Assembly: GCA_049585595.1 (NCBI GenBank)
Contig: JBAVAG010000025.1
Coordinates: forward strand, 17,632 to 81,631
From: Desulfobaccales bacterium
Lineage (GTDB): Bacteria; Desulfobacterota; Desulfobaccia; Desulfobaccales; 0-14-0-80-60-11
Reading direction: 5' to 3'
Length of the DNA stretch: 64,000 nucleotides
The notes beneath the pieces were generated by a model that was not told the origin of the DNA, searched no databases, and saw only the letters and a program-made list of their open reading frames with translations. Positions 570 through 58,334 of the stretch are shown here, piece after piece. A program made the position numbers and the translations under genes. The number at the start of each line of letters is the position of its first letter. The stretch's first letter is position 1.

Positions 570-663
570 AAAAAAAACCGGTCTGCCTGCATCCAGGCAA
601 CCCGGCTATCTCTTAAAGACCCGTGGCTTTCCGTCCCCCCCTCACGGCGGGTTTGGCTTTTCC
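570..663 (-). promoter_or_regulatory. c-di-GMP-I (GEMM-I)-like riboswitch aptamer plus intrinsic terminator, distal copy
   Basis: About 85% identical to 275-366. The GNRA loop is GTGA with compensatory stem changes. Terminator hairpin CCGGGTTGCCTG/CAGGCAGACCGG followed by T8. Confidence 0.5.
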
Positions 664-672
664 GGCAACATA

Positions 673-977: not shown

Positions 978-1175
978 CTAGTATTGTGTCCCACGGAAAC
1001 GTTGCATAAATGTTTTGCCTTTTCCCCTCGTCCTTGAGGGGGCGCCACCGGGTGGGGGTGGTAATTTATTGTTCATTTACCATATGTTGCCACCCTCCCC
1101 CCAACCCCCTCCCCTCTCAGGGAGGGGGGGTTATCCCAAATCTTTTGGTAAGATAATTGTGGGACCTAGTACTAG
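978..1175 (+). mobile_element. 198-bp MITE-like repeat, full-length copy 1
   Basis: Terminal inverted repeats CTAGTATTGTGTCCCAC ... GTGGGACCTAGTACTAG. Two internal CCCCTC/GAGGGG hairpin modules. Near-identical copies at 58071-58268 (same orientation) and 53358-53555 (inverted). Confidence 0.7.
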
Positions 1176-1237
1176 CAATGCGAGGAAAAATGCTTCCATT
1201 TGCAATAATTAGCAATAAAAAAATGGGAATCTTTAAA

Positions 1238-5744: not shown

Positions 5745-5785
5745 GCGCGGCGGAACGGGGGCAGGTGGCGCCGCCCGTTTGGCCG

Positions 5786-5896
5786 CTAGTGTTATGTCAC
5801 ACAATTATCTTAACCAAAGATTTGAGACACCCCCCATCCAGGGGGAGGGAAAAAGGCAAAGCATTTAGGCACCGTTTCCGTGAGATTCAATACTAG
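5786..5896 (-). mobile_element. MITE-like repeat, 111-bp deletion variant
   Basis: Same termini as the 198-bp family (CTAGTGTTATGTCAC ... GAGATTCAATACTAG), but only one internal hairpin module. Same orientation as the 53358-53555 copy. Confidence 0.6.
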
Positions 5897-11297: not shown

Positions 11298-14200
11298 ATG
11301 AATGACAAATTACTTGGATCTGTAATGGTCGTCGGCGGAGGAATCGCCGGGATGCAGGCCGCCTTAGACATAGCCAATTCAGGCTATTACGTCCACTTGG
11401 TGGAAAAGGGGCCAGCAATCGGCGGGGTCATGGCGCAGCTCGACAAGACCTTCCCCACCAATGACTGTGCCATGTGAATTATCTCTCCCAAGCTGGTCGA
11501 GGTCGGCCGGCATATTAACATTGAGGTGCATCCTCTGACAGAGGTGCAGGAGATTACCGGGGAGCCGGGAAATTTTACAGTCACCTTAGAGAAGCAGCCC
11601 CGGTATGTCGATCTGTCCAAGTGTACGGGCTGCGGGGATTGCGCCAAAGCCTGTCCGGTAGTCATTAAAGATGAATTTAATCTGGGGCTGGCGGATGGTC
11701 GGGCTGCCTATCGCCTCTATCCACAAGCCATTCCCTCGGCCTTTTCCATCCTGAAGGCGTCCCGGGCCCCGTGTACCCGCACCTGTCCCGCCGGGATTAA
11801 TGTTCAGGGTTATGTGCAGCTTATCAAGATGAGGAAATATGAAGAGGCCCTGAAGCTCATTATGGAGCGGCTGCCTTTTCCTGGATCCCTGGGGCGCATT
11901 TGCCCCCATCCCTGCGAGGAAAAATGCCGGCGTCAGGAGATGGATGATCCGATAGCTATTTCCTGCCTGAAGCGGTTCGCGGCTGACCAAGTGGATGTAG
12001 GCCAAATCTCCTTCCCCAAAGCCGATCCCCGGAAAGAAAAGGTGGCCATCATCGGTGCCGGTCCGGCCGGGTTGACCTGCGCCTATCATCTGACCCTGCG
12101 GGGCTATCCGGCCACTGTCTTCGAGGCCCTGCCTAAGCCCGGGGGCATGCTGATGGTAGGGGTTCCGGAATATCGCTTACCCCGAGACGTCTTGGAAAAA
12201 GAGATTAACAACATCCTGAGCCTGGGGGTGGACCTGAAGACCAATATGGCCCTGGGGCGGGACTTTACCCTGAAGGAGCTGTTTGACCAGGGATACAAGG
12301 CAGTTTTCCTGGGCCTAGGTTGCCATAGAGGACTTCCCCTGGGGATTCCGGGAGAGGAAGCCGAGGGGGTCATGCAGGGGGTAGAGCTCCTGCGCCGGCA
12401 TAGTCTGGGACTACCCCTGACGGTGGGCAAACAGGTGGCGGTCATCGGCGGCGGTAACGTGGCTCTGGATGCCGCTTGCACCGCCCGGCGTTACGGCGCC
12501 AACGTCACCATTGTCTATCGCCGCTCCCGGGAGGAGATGCCCGCCCATGCCTGGGAGATCGACCAGGGATTGTGCGAAGGCGTGAGCATCCATTATCTGG
12601 TGGCGCCCTCTAAGGTCTTGTCCGAAAATGGGCGGGTCACCGGGCTGGTCGTTCAGAAAATGGAATTAGGACCGCCGGATGCCTCCGGACGGCGCCGCCC
12701 GGAACCCATCCCGGGATCAGAGTTCGAGCTGCCGTATGACATGGTGGTCCCGGCCATTGGCCAGGCCGCCGGGCTGGATCCTTTAAAGGATGATGGCATT
12801 AAATTCAGCAGTCGTGGAACCATTGAGGTGGACCCGTTGACTTACATGACCTCTCGGATGGGGGTCTTCGCCGCCGGGGATGTCCAATCCGGTCCATGGA
12901 TTGCCGTGGAGGCGATAGGCGGCGCCATTGAGGCGGCGGAGTCCATCCATCGTTATCTCCGGGATATGGATTGGGTTGCCGGTCGCATCAAAGGCGTTGA
13001 TGCCGAGGTCCGCTGGCGGGACCTTCCTAAAGACAGGTGGGGGCGGCCCCGAGAATCTATGGTCACCATCCCCCCGGAGGTCTCTTCCATCTGCTTTGCC
13101 GAGATTGCCCAGGGTTTTACCGAGGAACAGGCCCTGGAGGAAGCGGACCGCTGCATCAACTGCGGCATCTGTTCCGAATGTATGCAGTGTGTGGCAGCCT
13201 GCCAGGCCGGGGCCATCGACCACAGCCAACAGCGCCGGATAATGGACCTTAATGTGGGTTCTGTGGTGCTGGCGCCTGGCTTCCGAGCCTTTGATCCTAG
13301 CGATTATGGAAAATTTCAGTATGCCTCCCATCCCAATGTGGTGACCTCCCTGGAGTTTGAACGGATGCTTTCGGCCGGAGGGCCTTTTGCCGGGCATTTG
13401 ATCCGGCTCTCGGACCATAAAGAGCCCAAAAAGATCGCCTGGTTGCAATGCGTCGGCTCTCGCGACCTGAATCAATGTGAAAAAGGCTATTGTTCCGCGG
13501 TGTGCTGCATGTATGCCGTCAAACAAACAATGATCGCCAAAGAACACAGCAAGGAACCTCTGGATACCGCCATCTTCTTTATGGATATGCGCACTCCTGG
13601 TAAAGGGTTTGAGAAGTATTATTGGCGGGCCCAGGATGAGCTTGGGGTGCGGTTTGTCCGCTCCCGGGTACATAGTATCGAGCCGGTCCCCGGTACCGAT
13701 GATTTGACGGTGAAGTACTGGTCTGAAGACGGCTCTTTAAACACGGAATCCTTTGATATGGTGGTTCTTTCCATCGGGATGGTGATCCCCCCGGACACCG
13801 TGAAAATGGCTAAGAAGTTAGGGATAGAGCTGAGCCCCAATAACTTTGTGAGTGCAAGCTGCTTTGACCCGGTGGCCACTTCCCGGCCCGGGGTTTATAC
13901 CTGTGGAGCGTTTACCGGTCCCAAGGATATCCCTCAGTCGGTCATGGAGGCCAGCGCGGCCGCGTCGGCTTCAACCAGGGCTTTGGCTGCGGCCCGGGGC
14001 ACCTTGCAAAAGAAAAAGGAATTCCCGCCAGAGACGGAAGTGGCAGGGGAGCCAGCCAGAATTGGCGTGTTCGTTTGCAACTGCGGCATTAATATCGGCG
14101 GCATTGCCGACGTACCTGCCATCGTGGAATACGCCAGGACCATTCCCAATGTGGAATACGCGCAAGCCAACCTCTTCAGTTGCTCTCAAGACGCGCAGAA

Positions 14201-22239: not shown

Positions 22240-22680
22240 ATGGAATACAATCCGAGGATACTGGCCTTTGTTTGCACCTACTGCACCTACACGGCCGCAG
22301 ATATGGCGGGGTCGGCCCGGATGCAGTACCCCTACAACGTGCGCATCGTCAAGTTCCTGTGCACCGGCCGGATAGACATCATCCACATTTTGAAGGCCTT
22401 TGAGGCTGGCGCCGACGCCATCTTCGTGGGCGGCTGAGAGTTCGGAAACTGTCATTTCCTGGAAGGAAATCTCAGGGCCCGGGAACGAGTGGAATATGCG
22501 CAACAATTACTGGAAGAGACCGGTCTGGGGGCGGACCGCCTGGCCATGTATGAGATCGGTGCCTCTGAGGCCCCCAAGTGGGTGGCGGCGGTGAACGAAA
22601 TGACGGAAAAAGCTAAAGCTCTGGGGCCCAATCCTTTGAACCCGAGTTGGGGAGTAAAGGCAGTGGTCCCGAAAAACTAG
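22240..22680 (+). CDS. mvhD: MvhD-type [2Fe-2S] subunit; in-frame TGA (probable selenocysteine) at 22435-22437
   Basis: ...GADAIFVGG-TGA-EFGNCHFLEGNLRARERVEYAQQLL... joins track ORFs 22240-22437 and 22489-22680 in one frame. Same position as in the 15759-16178 gene. Confidence 0.75.
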
Positions 22681-52078: not shown

Positions 52079-53242
52079 TTAAATGAACCCGGCCCGCAAG
52101 GGCTGCGGGAAGAAGAGTTCCTGCGAGGTGCGCAAAAAATAGGCGTCGGTCATGGAGGCCAGAAAATCCCGGACGATCTCCGCAGGCTGGTGGGACTCCC
52201 GATAGGCGGGGTCCAGGGGGGCCAGGAACTCCCGGTAGATGGGCGAGTCGCGCCGGTCTTGGGCCAGGTCCTCCAAAAACCGCTGGAACAGTCGCTGGCA
52301 CAGGGCCTCGATCTTGGAGGTTTGCTCCTTGATGCGGGGATTGTTATAGATCCGCTGGTAATTGAACTCCTTGAGCTCTCTCAACAATGCCCCCACCTCG
52401 GGGCTGTATCCCACGTAGTTCTTGTCAAAACTGTGGCGCAGCAGGTCGGTCACCAGGCTGTAAACGATGGCGCCGTTGGTGCGGCCCAGGCGGCCCGCCA
52501 CCTCCGGGGGCAGCTCCTCCCGCTTGACCAGCGACAGGGTGATGGCGTCCTCCAGGTCCCGGCCGATGTAGCTAATGGTATCCGCCAGCCGGACCACGCA
52601 GCCCTCCAGGGTCATGGGCTTCAGAGAAAGCCCCGGGTCAGCCGTCTTGCTGCGAATCTCCTCCTCCAGATGGGCGAAGGTCTTGTCCCGCTGAGGGGAG
52701 AGGCGCTCCAGGTGGGTCTCCCCGTCGTGGCACAGGATGCCGTCCAGCACTTGCAGGGAGAGATTGAGGCCCCGGCCGTTTTTCTCCAGGCGGTCGAGAA
52801 AGCGCACTCCCTGGATGCTGTGGATAAAGGGGCCGATGCCGTGGGCCTGGCAGAGGACGGAGAGGATTCGTTCTCCGTCGTGGCCGAAAGGCGGATGGCC
52901 GATATCGTGGCCCAGGGCGATCGCCTCCAGCAGGTCTTCATTCAGCCGCAAAAACTTGCCGATGGTGCGGGCGATCTTGGATAGGAGCTGCACGTGCAGC
53001 ACCCGGTGGCTGATGTGTTCATGCTCGACGAGATAAAAGACCTGGGTCTTGTCAATATAACGGGTGTAGGCCCGGGAGTGGAGGATGCGGTCGGCATCCA
53101 CCGCGAACTCCTGACGGTGGCCCCGGGCCACGGACTCTTCAAAGCGGCGGCGGGATGCCTGGACCGAGCGGGTGGCGTACGGCGACAGCCAGGTTTCCTC
53201 CTGCTGCTCCAAGATTTGCCGTAGTTCCGATAGCTTGACCAT
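52079..53242 (-). CDS. dGTPase-like HD-domain phosphohydrolase
   Basis: RVLHVQ...ALGHDIGHPPFGHDGE motif. Start set at MVKLSEL. Confidence 0.8.
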   Translation of the reverse strand: MVKLSELRQILEQQEETWLSPYATRSVQASRRRFEESVARGHRQEFAVDADRILHSRAYTRYIDKTQVFYLVEHEHISHRVLHVQLLSKIARTIGKFLRLNEDLLEAIALGHDIGHPPFGHDGERILSVLCQAHGIGPFIHSIQGVRFLDRLEKNGRGLNLSLQVLDGILCHDGETHLERLSPQRDKTFAHLEEEIRSKTADPGLSLKPMTLEGCVVRLADTISYIGRDLEDAITLSLVKREELPPEVAGRLGRTNGAIVYSLVTDLLRHSFDKNYVGYSPEVGALLRELKEFNYQRIYNNPRIKEQTSKIEALCQRLFQRFLEDLAQDRRDSPIYREFLAPLDPAYRESHQPAEIVRDFLASMTDAYFLRTSQELFFPQPLRAGFI

Positions 53243-53357
53243 TGAGGTGCTATTTCCCGAATCACTATCATAGCACAAGAGCCGGCGCCCCTCAATAGCG
53301 GCAGGTTCTGGTAGCCGCAGACTTTAGCCCGCGCTCATCGAGCTTTTGCCCTAGCTG

Positions 53358-53555
53358 CTAGTGCTATGTCCTACAATTATCTTACCAAAAGATTTGAGAT
53401 AACCCCCCCTCCCTGAGAGGGGAGGGGGTTGGGGGGAGGGTGGCAACATATGGTAAATGAAAGATAAATTACCACCCACACCCGGTGTCGCCCCCTCAAG
53501 GGGGAGGGAAAAAGGGAAAGCGTTTATGCAACGTTTTCGTGGGACACAATACTAG
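53358..53555 (-). mobile_element. 198-bp MITE-like repeat, inverted copy
   Basis: Reverse complement of the 978-1175 / 58071-58268 family, with the same TIRs. Confidence 0.7.
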
Positions 53556-53708
53556 CAACCACCTAATCCACCCGCAGATTCGGGGCAGCGGACCGGCCTC
53601 CCGAGAATTGTTTGGTATTATGGCAAAGGTATGATATTTATTAAGTTTCATGGAATTTCAGACCGCCGGGGTTTAAGGTATTTTGGGCGCCGGCGCCGGG
53701 CCGAACAG

Positions 53709-54629
53709 ATGGACGACCGCGCTTATCTGGATGATTTTCTGCGCTACCTGCGGGTGGAGCGTCAGATGTCGCCCCACACCCTGCGGAGCTATCGTCTCGA
53801 TATCGGCCAGTTTTTGGAGTTTTACCGCTCCCGTCCGGGAAACCCTGATTTGCGGGAGGTGGCCTACCCGGACCTGCGGGCCTTCCTGGCCCAGGCCCTT
53901 AAGGGCCGGCGCAAGGCCACGGTGGCCCGGAAGCTCTCGGCCCTGCGCACCTTCTGCAAGTACTTGCAGCGCCAGGGGGTGTTGGCCGCCAACCCCGCCA
54001 GGCTGGCCCCCAGCCCCAAGCTGGAGAAGCCCCTGCCCCATTTTCTGACGGTGGACGAGGCCTTTCATTTGCTGGGCGCCTGCGGCGGCGACGCCTTCGG
54101 GGCCTGCCGGGACCGGGCCATTTTGGAGGTCTTTTACGGCGGCGGTTTGCGGCTGTCGGAATTGGCCGGTCTCGACCTGGGGGACCTGGACCTGGATCAG
54201 GGGGTGCTGCGGGTCTGGGGCAAGGGCGGCAAGGAGAGGCTGGCCTTTCTGGGGAAGCCGGCCCGGGAGGCGGTGGCCGCCTATCTGGCCCGGCGCCTGG
54301 CCCTGGCGGCCAAAACGGCCGGGGTGGCCTGGACCGAAGCGCGAGAGGCTGCTCCCCTGTTCCTGAACCGGCGGGGCGGCCGCCTCAGCTCCCGTTCCGT
54401 GGCCCGCCTGGTGGGCAAGTGGGCGCGGCTGGCCGGCCTCTCCCAGGCCCTGACCCCCCACGGCCTGCGCCACAGCTTTGCCACCCACCTGCTGGAGGGC
54501 CGGGCCGACTTGCGCACCGTCCAGGAGCTGCTGGGGCACGCCTCCATCTCCAGCACCCAGCGGTATTTGCATACGGACCTCGATTACCTGATGGAGGAAT
54601 ACGACAAGGCGCATCCCCGGAGCAAATGA
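53709..54629 (+). CDS. xerC: tyrosine recombinase XerC/XerD
   Basis: Phage-integrase SAM-like N-terminal domain (YLRVERQMSPHTLRSY), and HGLRHSFATHLL...LGHASISSTQRY with the catalytic Tyr. Classic xerC-hslVU neighbourhood. Confidence 0.9.
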   Translation: MDDRAYLDDFLRYLRVERQMSPHTLRSYRLDIGQFLEFYRSRPGNPDLREVAYPDLRAFLAQALKGRRKATVARKLSALRTFCKYLQRQGVLAANPARLAPSPKLEKPLPHFLTVDEAFHLLGACGGDAFGACRDRAILEVFYGGGLRLSELAGLDLGDLDLDQGVLRVWGKGGKERLAFLGKPAREAVAAYLARRLALAAKTAGVAWTEAREAAPLFLNRRGGRLSSRSVARLVGKWARLAGLSQALTPHGLRHSFATHLLEGRADLRTVQELLGHASISSTQRYLHTDLDYLMEEYDKAHPRSK

Positions 54630-55021: not shown

Positions 55022-55567
55022 ATGGACCAGGATATGAAAAAATTCCGCGGCACCACCATCCTCATGGTGCGCCGGGGGGATCAGGTGGCGGTGGCCGGCG
55101 ACGGCCAGGTGAGCCTGGGTGATATGATCATGAAGCAGCGGGCCAAAAAGGTGCGCCGCCTCTACCACGGCAAGATCATCGCCGGCTTCGCCGGTTCGGC
55201 GGCCGACGCCCTCACCCTGTTCGAGCGCCTGGAGGCCAAGCTGGAGGCCCACCAGGGGAACCTCACCCGGGCGGTGGTGGAGTTGGCCAAGGATTGGCGC
55301 ACCGACCGCATCCTGAGGCGCCTGGAGGCGATGCTGCTCACCGTGGACTTGAGCGGGGCCTTTCTCATCTCCGGCACCGGCGACGTCATCGAGCCGGATG
55401 AAGGGGTGATGGGCATCGGCTCCGGCGGGGCCTACGCCCTGGCCGCGGCCCGGGCCCTGCTGGCCCATACCGATCTCGCCCCCGCGGCCATCTGCCGGGA
55501 GGCCCTGGAGATCGCCGCCTCGCTATGAGTTTATACCAATAACGAAATTGTGATTGAGGAGTTGTAA
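55022..55567 (+). CDS. hslV: HslV peptidase subunit; in-frame TGA at 55526-55528 followed by 12 conserved codons
   Basis: GTTILMVRR...GFAGSAADA...GSGG pattern. The track ORF ends ...[12 protein letters not shown], and the same frame continues [15 protein letters not shown] (compare the E. coli end DICIYTNHFHTIEEL). The tail is 31% GC versus about 70% upstream. Confidence 0.8.
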
Positions 55568-55578
55568 TTTCATTAAAA

Positions 55579-56430
55579 ATGAATATTTTTTATTTAGATA
55601 CAAGTGCTATAAATAGGCTTTATGATAATCCAAAGATTCCGGAACTGAAAAATGCAATTATATTTAAGGGGAAGATATTTTTAAGTATTTTTAATATAGT
55701 CGAACTTGCTTCAGAATCAAATAAAGAGCGCCGAGAAGGACTACTTAAACTAGCTAGAGATATTGGTTGTAATTATCGCCCACTTGCGATGCCTAATGAA
55801 ATTCTCAAGAGAGCGGTAGAGGCAGTTAGGGTTTTAGCTCGTGATATGAATTATTCTATGGGGGAAGAATGGGATGAAGTTTGGGTTATATTGAAGGAGC
55901 CAGAGCAAATAGATCTAGAAGCATATGATAAGATAATAAAATGGAAGAAAAAACAGGAGCAATGGTATCAAGAATTACATGATAGAGGCCGCAATCTTTG
56001 GCAGGACAAGATATCTGATCTGTCTAAGGAGGAACGTCATACCTTTACGTCTAATTTTTCGAAATTGATAAAAACATACAGGCCAGAATTTATTGCAAGT
56101 TTTGTATCTAACCTCGCAAATAAAGGGGCTAATTTGACAATAAATGATGAACTTGCTAAGAGAATAGTTAGGCACTCTGAACATTGGAGATTCTTTCTAT
56201 TCAGTATGACATATGGTATGTTTGTGAGGTCTATTAGAACAAGCAATTTTGCCAAATCTAAGACACCTGGAAGCATTGACATACAACAATCAATTTATTT
56301 AGCAAATTGTGATATCTTTATAACTGCGGATGATGCTCAATATGCTATGCTTCGCTTAATTAACCAGTTCGGTCATAGAAAGAGAAAAGTATGGAAAGCT
56401 GCAAGATTCATAGAGTGGCTTTTGAACTAA
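55579..56430 (+). CDS. PIN-like nuclease-domain protein with a large central insertion (283 aa), AT-rich cargo gene
   Basis: N-terminus IFYLDTSAINRL and NIVELAS, C-terminus DIQQSIYLANCDIFITADD, giving PIN-type acidic residues D/E/D/D. About 33% GC. Sits exactly in the hslV-hslU spacer. Confidence 0.5.
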   Translation: MNIFYLDTSAINRLYDNPKIPELKNAIIFKGKIFLSIFNIVELASESNKERREGLLKLARDIGCNYRPLAMPNEILKRAVEAVRVLARDMNYSMGEEWDEVWVILKEPEQIDLEAYDKIIKWKKKQEQWYQELHDRGRNLWQDKISDLSKEERHTFTSNFSKLIKTYRPEFIASFVSNLANKGANLTINDELAKRIVRHSEHWRFFLFSMTYGMFVRSIRTSNFAKSKTPGSIDIQQSIYLANCDIFITADDAQYAMLRLINQFGHRKRKVWKAARFIEWLLN

Positions 56431-56452
56431 TACACTTGAAGGACTTTGAATT

Positions 56453-57830
<1,378 letters not shown>

Positions 57831-57832
<2 letters not shown>

Positions 57833-57858
57833 GCAGTGAGCGGTGAGCAGTGAGCAGT
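57831..57858 (+). repeat. tandem heptamer repeat (GAGCAGT x4) starting at the hslU stop codon
   Basis: GAGCAGT GAGCGGT GAGCAGT GAGCAGT, followed by a string of short GC hairpins (57859-58020). Confidence 0.7.
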
Positions 57859-58070
57859 AGGGTGCGCCCTGCGCACCGAAAAATGGGCGCGACCGTCTTC
57901 AAAAGAAATGTGGCGCCGCCGCCCTCGGCGGCGGAAGCAAGGTAGCCGCAGGCTTTAGCCTGCGCCGCACAGGCGGGACGCCTGTGCCACCCAAAGAAAA
58001 CCTGGGGCGGCCTGTGGCCGCCGGAAAAGCATATCCTGGAAAGAGGAACATCGCTGGCTGAAGCCTGCAG

Positions 58071-58268
58071 CTATTACTGTGTCCCATGGAAACGTTGCAT
58101 AAATGCTTTGCCTTTTCCCCTCCCCCTTGAGGGGGCGACACCGGGTGGGGGTGGTAATTAATCTTCCATTTACCATATGTTGCCACCCTCCCCCCAACCC
58201 CCTCCCCTCAAGGGAGGGGGGGTTATCTCAAATCTTTTATTTAAGATAATTGTGGGACATCACACTAG
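58071..58268 (+). mobile_element. 198-bp MITE-like repeat, full-length copy
   Basis: About 90% identical to 978-1175 with the same TIRs. Confidence 0.7.
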
Positions 58269-58334
58269 CTAATGATGCCGGAATCCTCAACGTTTTTGCT
58301 GACCGCTGAATGCTGATAGCCGCGAGGGACTTAA

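Follow-up and report, generated by a model that had tools for sequence, protein, structure and literature searches.

The window, by which we mean the whole stretch of 64,000 nucleotides analysed here, contains the HslVU protease operon of a Desulfobaccales bacterium. The reading frame of the peptidase gene, hslV, is interrupted by a TGA close to its 3′ end, and a further gene lies between hslV and hslU. The operon comprises the following features.

53631..54629, plus strand: xerC/codV-type tyrosine recombinase (Phage_integrase, E 7.6e-44), first gene of the xerC-hslV-hslU operon
55022..55528, plus strand: hslV as read in the window, a 168-aa ORF ending in ...EIAASL-TGA (Pfam Proteasome, 1.4e-19), matching the NF003964/TIGR03692 equivalogs at profile positions 1-157 of 171
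55526-55528, plus strand: premature TGA codon in hslV, whose A at 55528 is a C in all other near-identical copies
55529..55567, plus strand: native HslV C-terminus in frame past the TGA, 12 codons followed by TAA at 55565-55567
55579..56430, plus strand: 283-aa cargo gene of low GC (about 34%) between hslV and hslU
56453..57832, plus strand: hslU, 459 aa, ATPase partner of HslV (AAA_2, 5.9e-34)

The hslV TAA is followed by 11 nt, the 283-aa ORF, a further 22 nt and the hslU ATG at 56453, and the xerC-hslV-hslU synteny is the same in all relatives. Several repeated or structured elements were also recorded in the window.

978-1177 (minus strand), 53357-53556 (plus strand) and 58070-58269 (minus strand), with partial copies at about 5782-5896: dispersed repeat of about 200 bp, copies 91-92% identical
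57833-57880: REP-like palindromes/tandem repeats, also found in the empty spacers of L021, L053, L058 and others
296-370 and 592-666, minus strand: two c-di-GMP-I-GGC riboswitch aptamers (RF03167, 72.6 and 65.2 bits, both above gathering)

The dispersed repeat has a C/G-rich palindromic core (ccccctccc...gggaggggg) and looks like a MITE, judging from its sequence; two inverted copies bracket the xerC-hslV-cargo-hslU operon. REP-like palindromes (e.g. atggtgggcagtgcccaccctacat) are found repeatedly, along with short tandem repeats of the gctgaNagctga type, both in hslV-hslU spacers and past the end of hslU. The two aptamers are about 300 nt apart.

The gene product shows the hallmarks of HslV: the N-terminal Thr nucleophile follows a short propeptide, the TTIL motif at residues 11-14 aligning to residue 1 of mature HslV structures, and the operon partner hslU is found downstream. 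The equivalog match of the protein encoded in the window is not full-length, its C-terminal strands being missing; the gene is still hslV, and its product is truncated. Past the TGA, the same frame reads GTT TAT ACC AAT AAC GAA ATT GTG ATT GAG GAG TTG TAA. With a Cys placed at the TGA, the resulting 181-aa HslV aligns end to end with the structure of Thermotoga maritima HslV (1M4Y, E 1.7e-63), its tail ...AGEICIYTNQNIVIEEV facing the C-terminal end of the T. maritima protein, and TIGR03692 coverage grows from positions 1-157 for the truncated form to 1-171 of 171 for the TGC form. Because the 181-aa form aligns full-length through the TGA codon in both comparisons, homology identifies the TGA with the conserved Cys column of HslV and the downstream frame with the true C-terminus, not with a chance ORF. 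The sequence-only reading of this DNA had proposed an in-frame TGA at a conserved Cys with a canonical HslV C-terminus beyond it, and the structural alignment and the profile coverage agree on this point.

The TGA is private to a single assembly. We compared ten near-identical contigs (L001-L010, from NCBI, ENA and Logan, all from different samples) that are 99.8-99.97% identical to the window. The hslV codon is TGC in 10/10, as the proposed change from TGC to TGA supposes, and the annotated HslV of these contigs has 181 aa, or 177 aa where a later start was chosen. In seven of these contigs (L004-L010) the C/A at 55528 is the sole mismatch to the window. Over about 8 kb, the window shows four private differences and zero indels relative to the contigs: positions 52756 (synonymous, Leu), 52769 (synonymous, Gly) and 52792 (Arg/Cys), and the fourth at 55528. 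The first three, compared with three near-identical contigs, lie within 37 bp in an HD-domain gene on the minus strand and resemble natural variation, perhaps one short recombination tract; an exact-product look-up of the window's private HD-domain protein allele found no record.

The same picture holds at a larger distance. Among related species of Desulfobaccales (Thermodesulfobacteriota), the order in which the scan with one genome per species placed the window, all relatives being MAGs, the codon is TGC or TGT in 44/44, at HslV identities of 77-97%; the orthologs that the sequence-only reading had suggested aligning, for a TGA or a Cys at this column, thus all have Cys. Using a degenerate DNA pattern permitting TGA, TGC or TGT, 121 further hslV tails of the clade were recovered from JGI metagenomes, with 64 TGC, 57 TGT and 0 TGA; an exact 35-mer scan of the JGI metagenomes gave zero matches. 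Altogether, no TGA is seen at the hslV Cys codon in about 175 other copies of the same species and clade, and the truncated HslV (168 aa, or 164 aa from an alternative start) is absent from a 153-billion-gene index. Fifteen public contigs, the ten above among them, encode an identical copy of the 283-aa protein next door.

A TGA at a Cys codon raises the question of selenocysteine (Sec), for which three sites in the window are relevant.

22435-22437, plus strand: likely Sec codon in MvhD (GG-U-EFGNCH); read as Cys, the FlpD match covers 1-123 of 123 (E 1.7e-46)
11475-11477, plus strand: HdrA-type Sec codon (TNDCAM-U-ISPK), recognised by its motif only
55544..55571, plus strand: hairpin downstream of the hslV TGA, 12 bp including 4 G-U, loop GAGG, -4.8 kcal/mol

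Three Sec-type TGAs had been reported in hdr/mvhD; the MvhD and HdrA-type sites were recovered, and the third was not located. By their sequence context, the MvhD and HdrA sites would imply a Sec-decoding machinery in the organism; no tRNA-Sec lies within the window. The hairpin at 55544-55571 is the only one downstream of the hslV TGA. It is rich in A-U/G-U pairs, spans the hslV TAA stop, is not SECIS-grade, and recurs unchanged in the TGC contig L001. The 60 nt past the TGA fold with a minimum free energy (MFE) of -6.8 kcal/mol. Of all TGA trinucleotides in the window, 1787 in number, about 96% are followed by a stronger fold, although by this measure the accepted Sec site of MvhD does not stand out from background either. 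Shuffling z-scores of the fold around the hslV TGA are +0.43 and -0.05, and Rfam, at gathering and E<=10 thresholds, returned nothing relevant around it. RNA folding and Rfam gave no credible SECIS element downstream of the hslV TGA, and the earlier impression, by eye, that no convincing SECIS-like hairpin is present was borne out, folding having found only the hairpin of -4.8 kcal/mol. Since MFE fails to flag the MvhD site, the rejection of Sec rests mainly on the comparative data.

The base composition of hslV changes abruptly at the same codon: in the window, GC is about 70% right up to the TGA/Cys codon and about 30% from there on. Across 41 clade members, GC3 is 0.48 in the last 12 hslV codons against 0.89 in the rest, the boundary lying between a Leu codon (0.93) and the Cys codon (0.46), and no other 12-codon window of hslV has a GC3 below 0.80 in the 41 species. 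The same low-GC tail is found in species with an empty hslV-hslU spacer of 75-100 nt (L021, L030, L048, L053, L054), where it always opens with TGC or TGT; the high-GC outgroups L082, L086 and L091 show no GC3 drop. On this codon usage, the low-GC3 tail starting at the Cys codon is native to the whole clade. The clade-wide break could be due to an ancient foreign tail, to repeated cassette-borne replacement or to selection on the mRNA. Two other origins of the low-GC block in the window were considered and ruled out: joint import of the 283-aa gene and a foreign hslV 3′ end, as the empty-spacer relatives share the tail, and an assembly chimera, as the same arrangement is present in 15 contigs of independent samples.

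The 283-aa protein belongs to a small, unnamed family of 47 homologue clusters. A single other species (L011/L067, 77% identity) has the gene in this slot, and elsewhere homologues lie in unrelated, partly mobile contexts. A Pfam PIN match covers its N-terminal part only and is below the cutoff (E 0.014), and scans of the ORF with PADLOC and NCBIfam gave no matches. All 41 homologues compared keep four acidic residues, D7, E42, D234 and D251. The AlphaFold2 model (pLDDT 88, pTM 0.86) displays an alpha/beta core interrupted by a long insert of helices; D7 comes after strand E2-6 and D251 after strand E246-249, and E42 and D234 are in helices. Comparison of this model with the PDB using Foldseek yielded nothing significant; the best relevant match, VapC4 (5h4g), has a target-normalised TM of 0.51-0.55 and an E of about 3.6, which is not significant. 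On the sub-threshold PIN match and the non-significant VapC-like fold matches, the protein can reasonably be regarded as a putative split PIN-like nuclease. In L011 (5853-6610, same contig as L067), the 283-aa gene is followed by a cytochrome-b-like gene starting with ATGGAACTTGTA, which is preceded by the native spacer, consisting of a REP-like palindrome and gctgaNagctga repeats. This beginning is similar to that of hslU (ATGGAATTG), which would fit an entry of the cytochrome-b cassette within the first hslU codons.

The 283-aa gene is one of many different occupants of this spacer. Outgroup hslV and hslU genes are adjacent or overlapping; in Desulfobaccales they are separated by 75-2780 nt across 44 species, with a median of 666 nt in the 130 loci for which both ends are present. 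In a census of 131 loci that includes the window, ORFs of at least 80 aa in the operon sense are found in 78 and form about 34 sequence clusters. The main types of cargo, and the loci where the hslV 3′ end is duplicated, are listed below.

Spacer of 21 loci: cytochrome-b-like cargo
Spacer of 19 loci: DUF4258 cargo (Pfam, 2.4e-6), often with a 65-aa partner that we take to be DUF2283-like
Spacer of 16 loci: 146-154-aa cargo of no named family
L049: DarT1 and NADAR antitoxin cargo (8.9e-19 and 3.7e-85)
L042: PDC-S31 candidate defence protein cargo (2.6e-10)
L038 4433-5259, L113 6201-6952, L132 1034-1909, L155 1637-2284, L163 147-1027 and L205 803-1680; also L043, L045, L119 and L192: duplicated hslV 3′ ends

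The remaining cargo includes many orphan genes. Turnover is rapid: L020, whose flanking DNA is about 93-97% identical to the window, holds an unrelated 269-aa gene in the slot. From these comparisons, the hslV-hslU spacer in Desulfobaccales is evidently a hotspot of variable cargo. At 10/169 loci, the 3′ end of hslV occurs two or three times in direct orientation, with copy lengths from 68 to at least 180 nt. In the six duplication loci examined (L038, L113, L132, L155, L163, L205), a DUF4258-type cassette is flanked by the copies, and paired copies differ chiefly in their last 20 nt or so. This arrangement suggests the footprint of recombination or integration at the hslV tail. In the window, no second tail copy is found at 56431-56452, so that no direct repeats flank its cassette.

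Against this background we can weigh the possible origins of the TGA, which has an ordinary explanation, a truncating mutation or a sequencing error, and does not make HslV a new selenoprotein. Recoding from Cys to Sec, with UGA decoded by SelB and tRNA-Sec to give a 181-aa selenoprotein HslV, would account for a TGA placed exactly at the conserved Cys with the frame going on beyond it, in an organism that carries Sec-type TGAs in MvhD and HdrA. The weak hairpin, whose apical loop starts with G about 27 nt downstream of the TGA, may also be counted in its favour, such a spacing being within the loose rules of bacterial SECIS prediction. Of the usual marks of a selenoprotein gene, hslV displays a UGA at the homologues' Cys with homology downstream; a SECIS stem-loop right after the UGA is not found, and neither conservation of the UGA nor recurring Sec/Cys pairs are seen in the ten contigs, 44 species and 121 tails. 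The absence of TGA from the other copies, about 175 in number, speaks directly against the recoding that the sequence-only reading had offered as an option. Moreover, no SECIS would have evolved with the TGA, since the flanks are base for base those of the TGC alleles; the hairpin is feeble and overlaps the TAA stop, the downstream 60 nt are among the least structured, with a fold z near 0, and Rfam is silent. The conserved Cys of HslV is a buried structural residue, neither redox nor catalytic, and the literature searched contains no report of an HslV selenoprotein. We hold this recoding to be extremely improbable. A recombination scar, in which the TGA was made at the junction when the low-GC 283-aa insertion recombined into the hslV 3′ end, looked plausible from the sharp GC drop at the TGA codon, and relatives' cassettes can carry duplicated hslV 3′ ends on their flanks, which indicates that the hslV tail takes part in recombination; the earlier suspicion of recombination was right in so far as this end of the gene is prone to exchange. 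The scar itself is nevertheless very unlikely. The low-GC3 tail is present from the Cys codon on in all 41 members analysed, including those with empty spacers, and the 283-aa gene begins only past the hslV TAA. The window tail equals those of the insert-less close relatives L020 and L021 save one synonymous base, and the insert has no second tail copy at its right end. As all ten contigs with the identical insertion read TGC, the insertion would predate the TGA and be independent of it. The former preference for a scar or a nonsense mutation therefore holds for the nonsense change from TGC to TGA and fails for the scar, the tail being native to the clade.

We give an even chance to a private, strain-level nonsense mutation from TGC to TGA, on the strength of the allele comparison. 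The homology that continues full-length through the TGA codon supports a real allele, and a true private SNV is plausible because the window represents a distinct lineage with natural-looking private variants and locally clean sequence. The same facts are explained by a sequencing, consensus or assembly error, in which case the true codon of the organism is TGC, its HslV is an intact 181-aa protein and the A at 55528 is spurious. This explanation, also named in the sequence-only reading and still live, we place somewhat short of even odds, and the choice between real mutation and consensus error is rated as roughly even. In favour of an error, the A at 55528 is unique among 11 same-species assemblies, the TGA destroys a universally conserved residue and the C-terminus, and no other public assembly has a truncated HslV product on record. 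Purifying selection should keep nonsense alleles of a conserved protease rare, and it filters real nonsense alleles, not errors. MAGs of the clade also show evident assembly errors in hslV: that of L069 (4001-4672) carries a number of 1-nt indels, including one in an A run, which are probably of this kind, and not every apparent disruption of hslV in these MAGs is biological. Against an error, about 8 kb of the window contain no indel and, besides 55528, just three private differences, which look like biology more than noise, two being synonymous; the 55528 site is not a homopolymer, and substitution errors are rare in good assemblies.

If the private nonsense mutation is real, a single C-to-A substitution would have turned the conserved hslV TGC into TGA in the strain or population behind the assembly. 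Ribosomes would terminate at the TGA and produce a 168-aa HslV without its last 13 residues. These residues make up the two beta-strands at the C-terminal end of the Ntn-hydrolase sandwich in solved HslV structures. As the last two strands of the sandwich would be lost, we expect the truncated HslV to be non-functional, likely misfolded or unable to assemble, and hslV would be a recent pseudogene in this strain, while hslU and the inserted 283-aa gene would remain intact. The strain would then have no functional HslV peptidase and would have kept HslU. More generally, the case cautions that, where an organism uses Sec, an in-frame TGA on a conserved Cys column may be no more than an assembly error or a private nonsense allele, and a few near-identical public contigs sufficed here to settle the selenoprotein question.

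The TGA itself thus has an ordinary explanation, and the spacer hotspot and the low-GC hslV tail are more useful leads. A normally invariant adjacency, that of hslV and hslU, has become in this clade a variable slot for many unrelated small genes. Together with the clade-wide low-GC tail and the occasional 3′ duplications, this slot suggests an undescribed cassette-exchange site in a stress-protease operon; a search of the literature for an hslVU hotspot found nothing pertinent. A more specific joint reading can be formulated, which we consider rather unlikely as it stands: the last 13 hslV codons and the spacer might serve a family of cassettes, each of one or two genes, as their attachment or crossover site. 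Speculatively, these cassettes would be TA- or defence-like, including the 283-aa PIN-like gene, and would enter the protease operon in sense. On occasion they would supply a new hslV tail of low GC, with a second copy of the hslV 3′ end staying behind, and the XerC/CodV-type recombinase at the head of the operon might be involved. The TGA would be, in the same tentative scheme, a mere point mutation in an exchange-prone hslV tail.

Comparison with known systems places the TGA and the slot in context. E. coli HslV (ClpQ) has its Cys159 in the same column (D-I-C-I-Y-T-N) and shares the I-E-E-L ending. A Cys-mutant study of HslVU by Yoo et al. in J Biol Chem in 1998 reportedly tied Cys159 to the assembly and activity of HslV. 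A literature search for HslV Cys159/C159 found nothing pertinent. Unlike the E. coli Cys159 mutants, the window has a stop and no substitution, and both the Cys and the 12 following residues are lost. The in-frame UGA at the homologues' Cys in a Sec-decoding host is reminiscent of the Sec/Cys homologue pairs known for HdrA and MvhD of sulfate reducers and syntrophs. True Sec sites, however, show conservation between lineages, are part of redox motifs (CxxU, GU..C) and have a SECIS after them, whereas the hslV UGA occurs in one assembly only, at a structural Cys, with unstructured downstream RNA that is the same as in the Cys alleles. The closest likeness of the TGA is to an ordinary nonsense point mutation or single-base consensus error, a private sense-to-stop change with unchanged flanks, from which no trait distinguishes it; only the location at a Cys codon in a Sec-using organism mimics a Sec/Cys pair. 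As for the slot, the hslVU cassettes differ from the elements of defence hotspots and from those inserting at gene 3′ ends in that they comprise one or two genes in operon sense, inside a protease operon, with no integrase in the cassette; their repeat lengths vary (68 to at least 180 nt), and the window cassette has no flanking repeat. They share with 3′-end elements the direct repeats of the target 3′ end that flank some of the cassettes, and with the defence and TA hotspots of core genomes a slot between conserved genes that holds differing small accessory genes among relatives, here DarT1-NADAR, PDC-S31, DUF4258/DUF2283 and the PIN-like gene.
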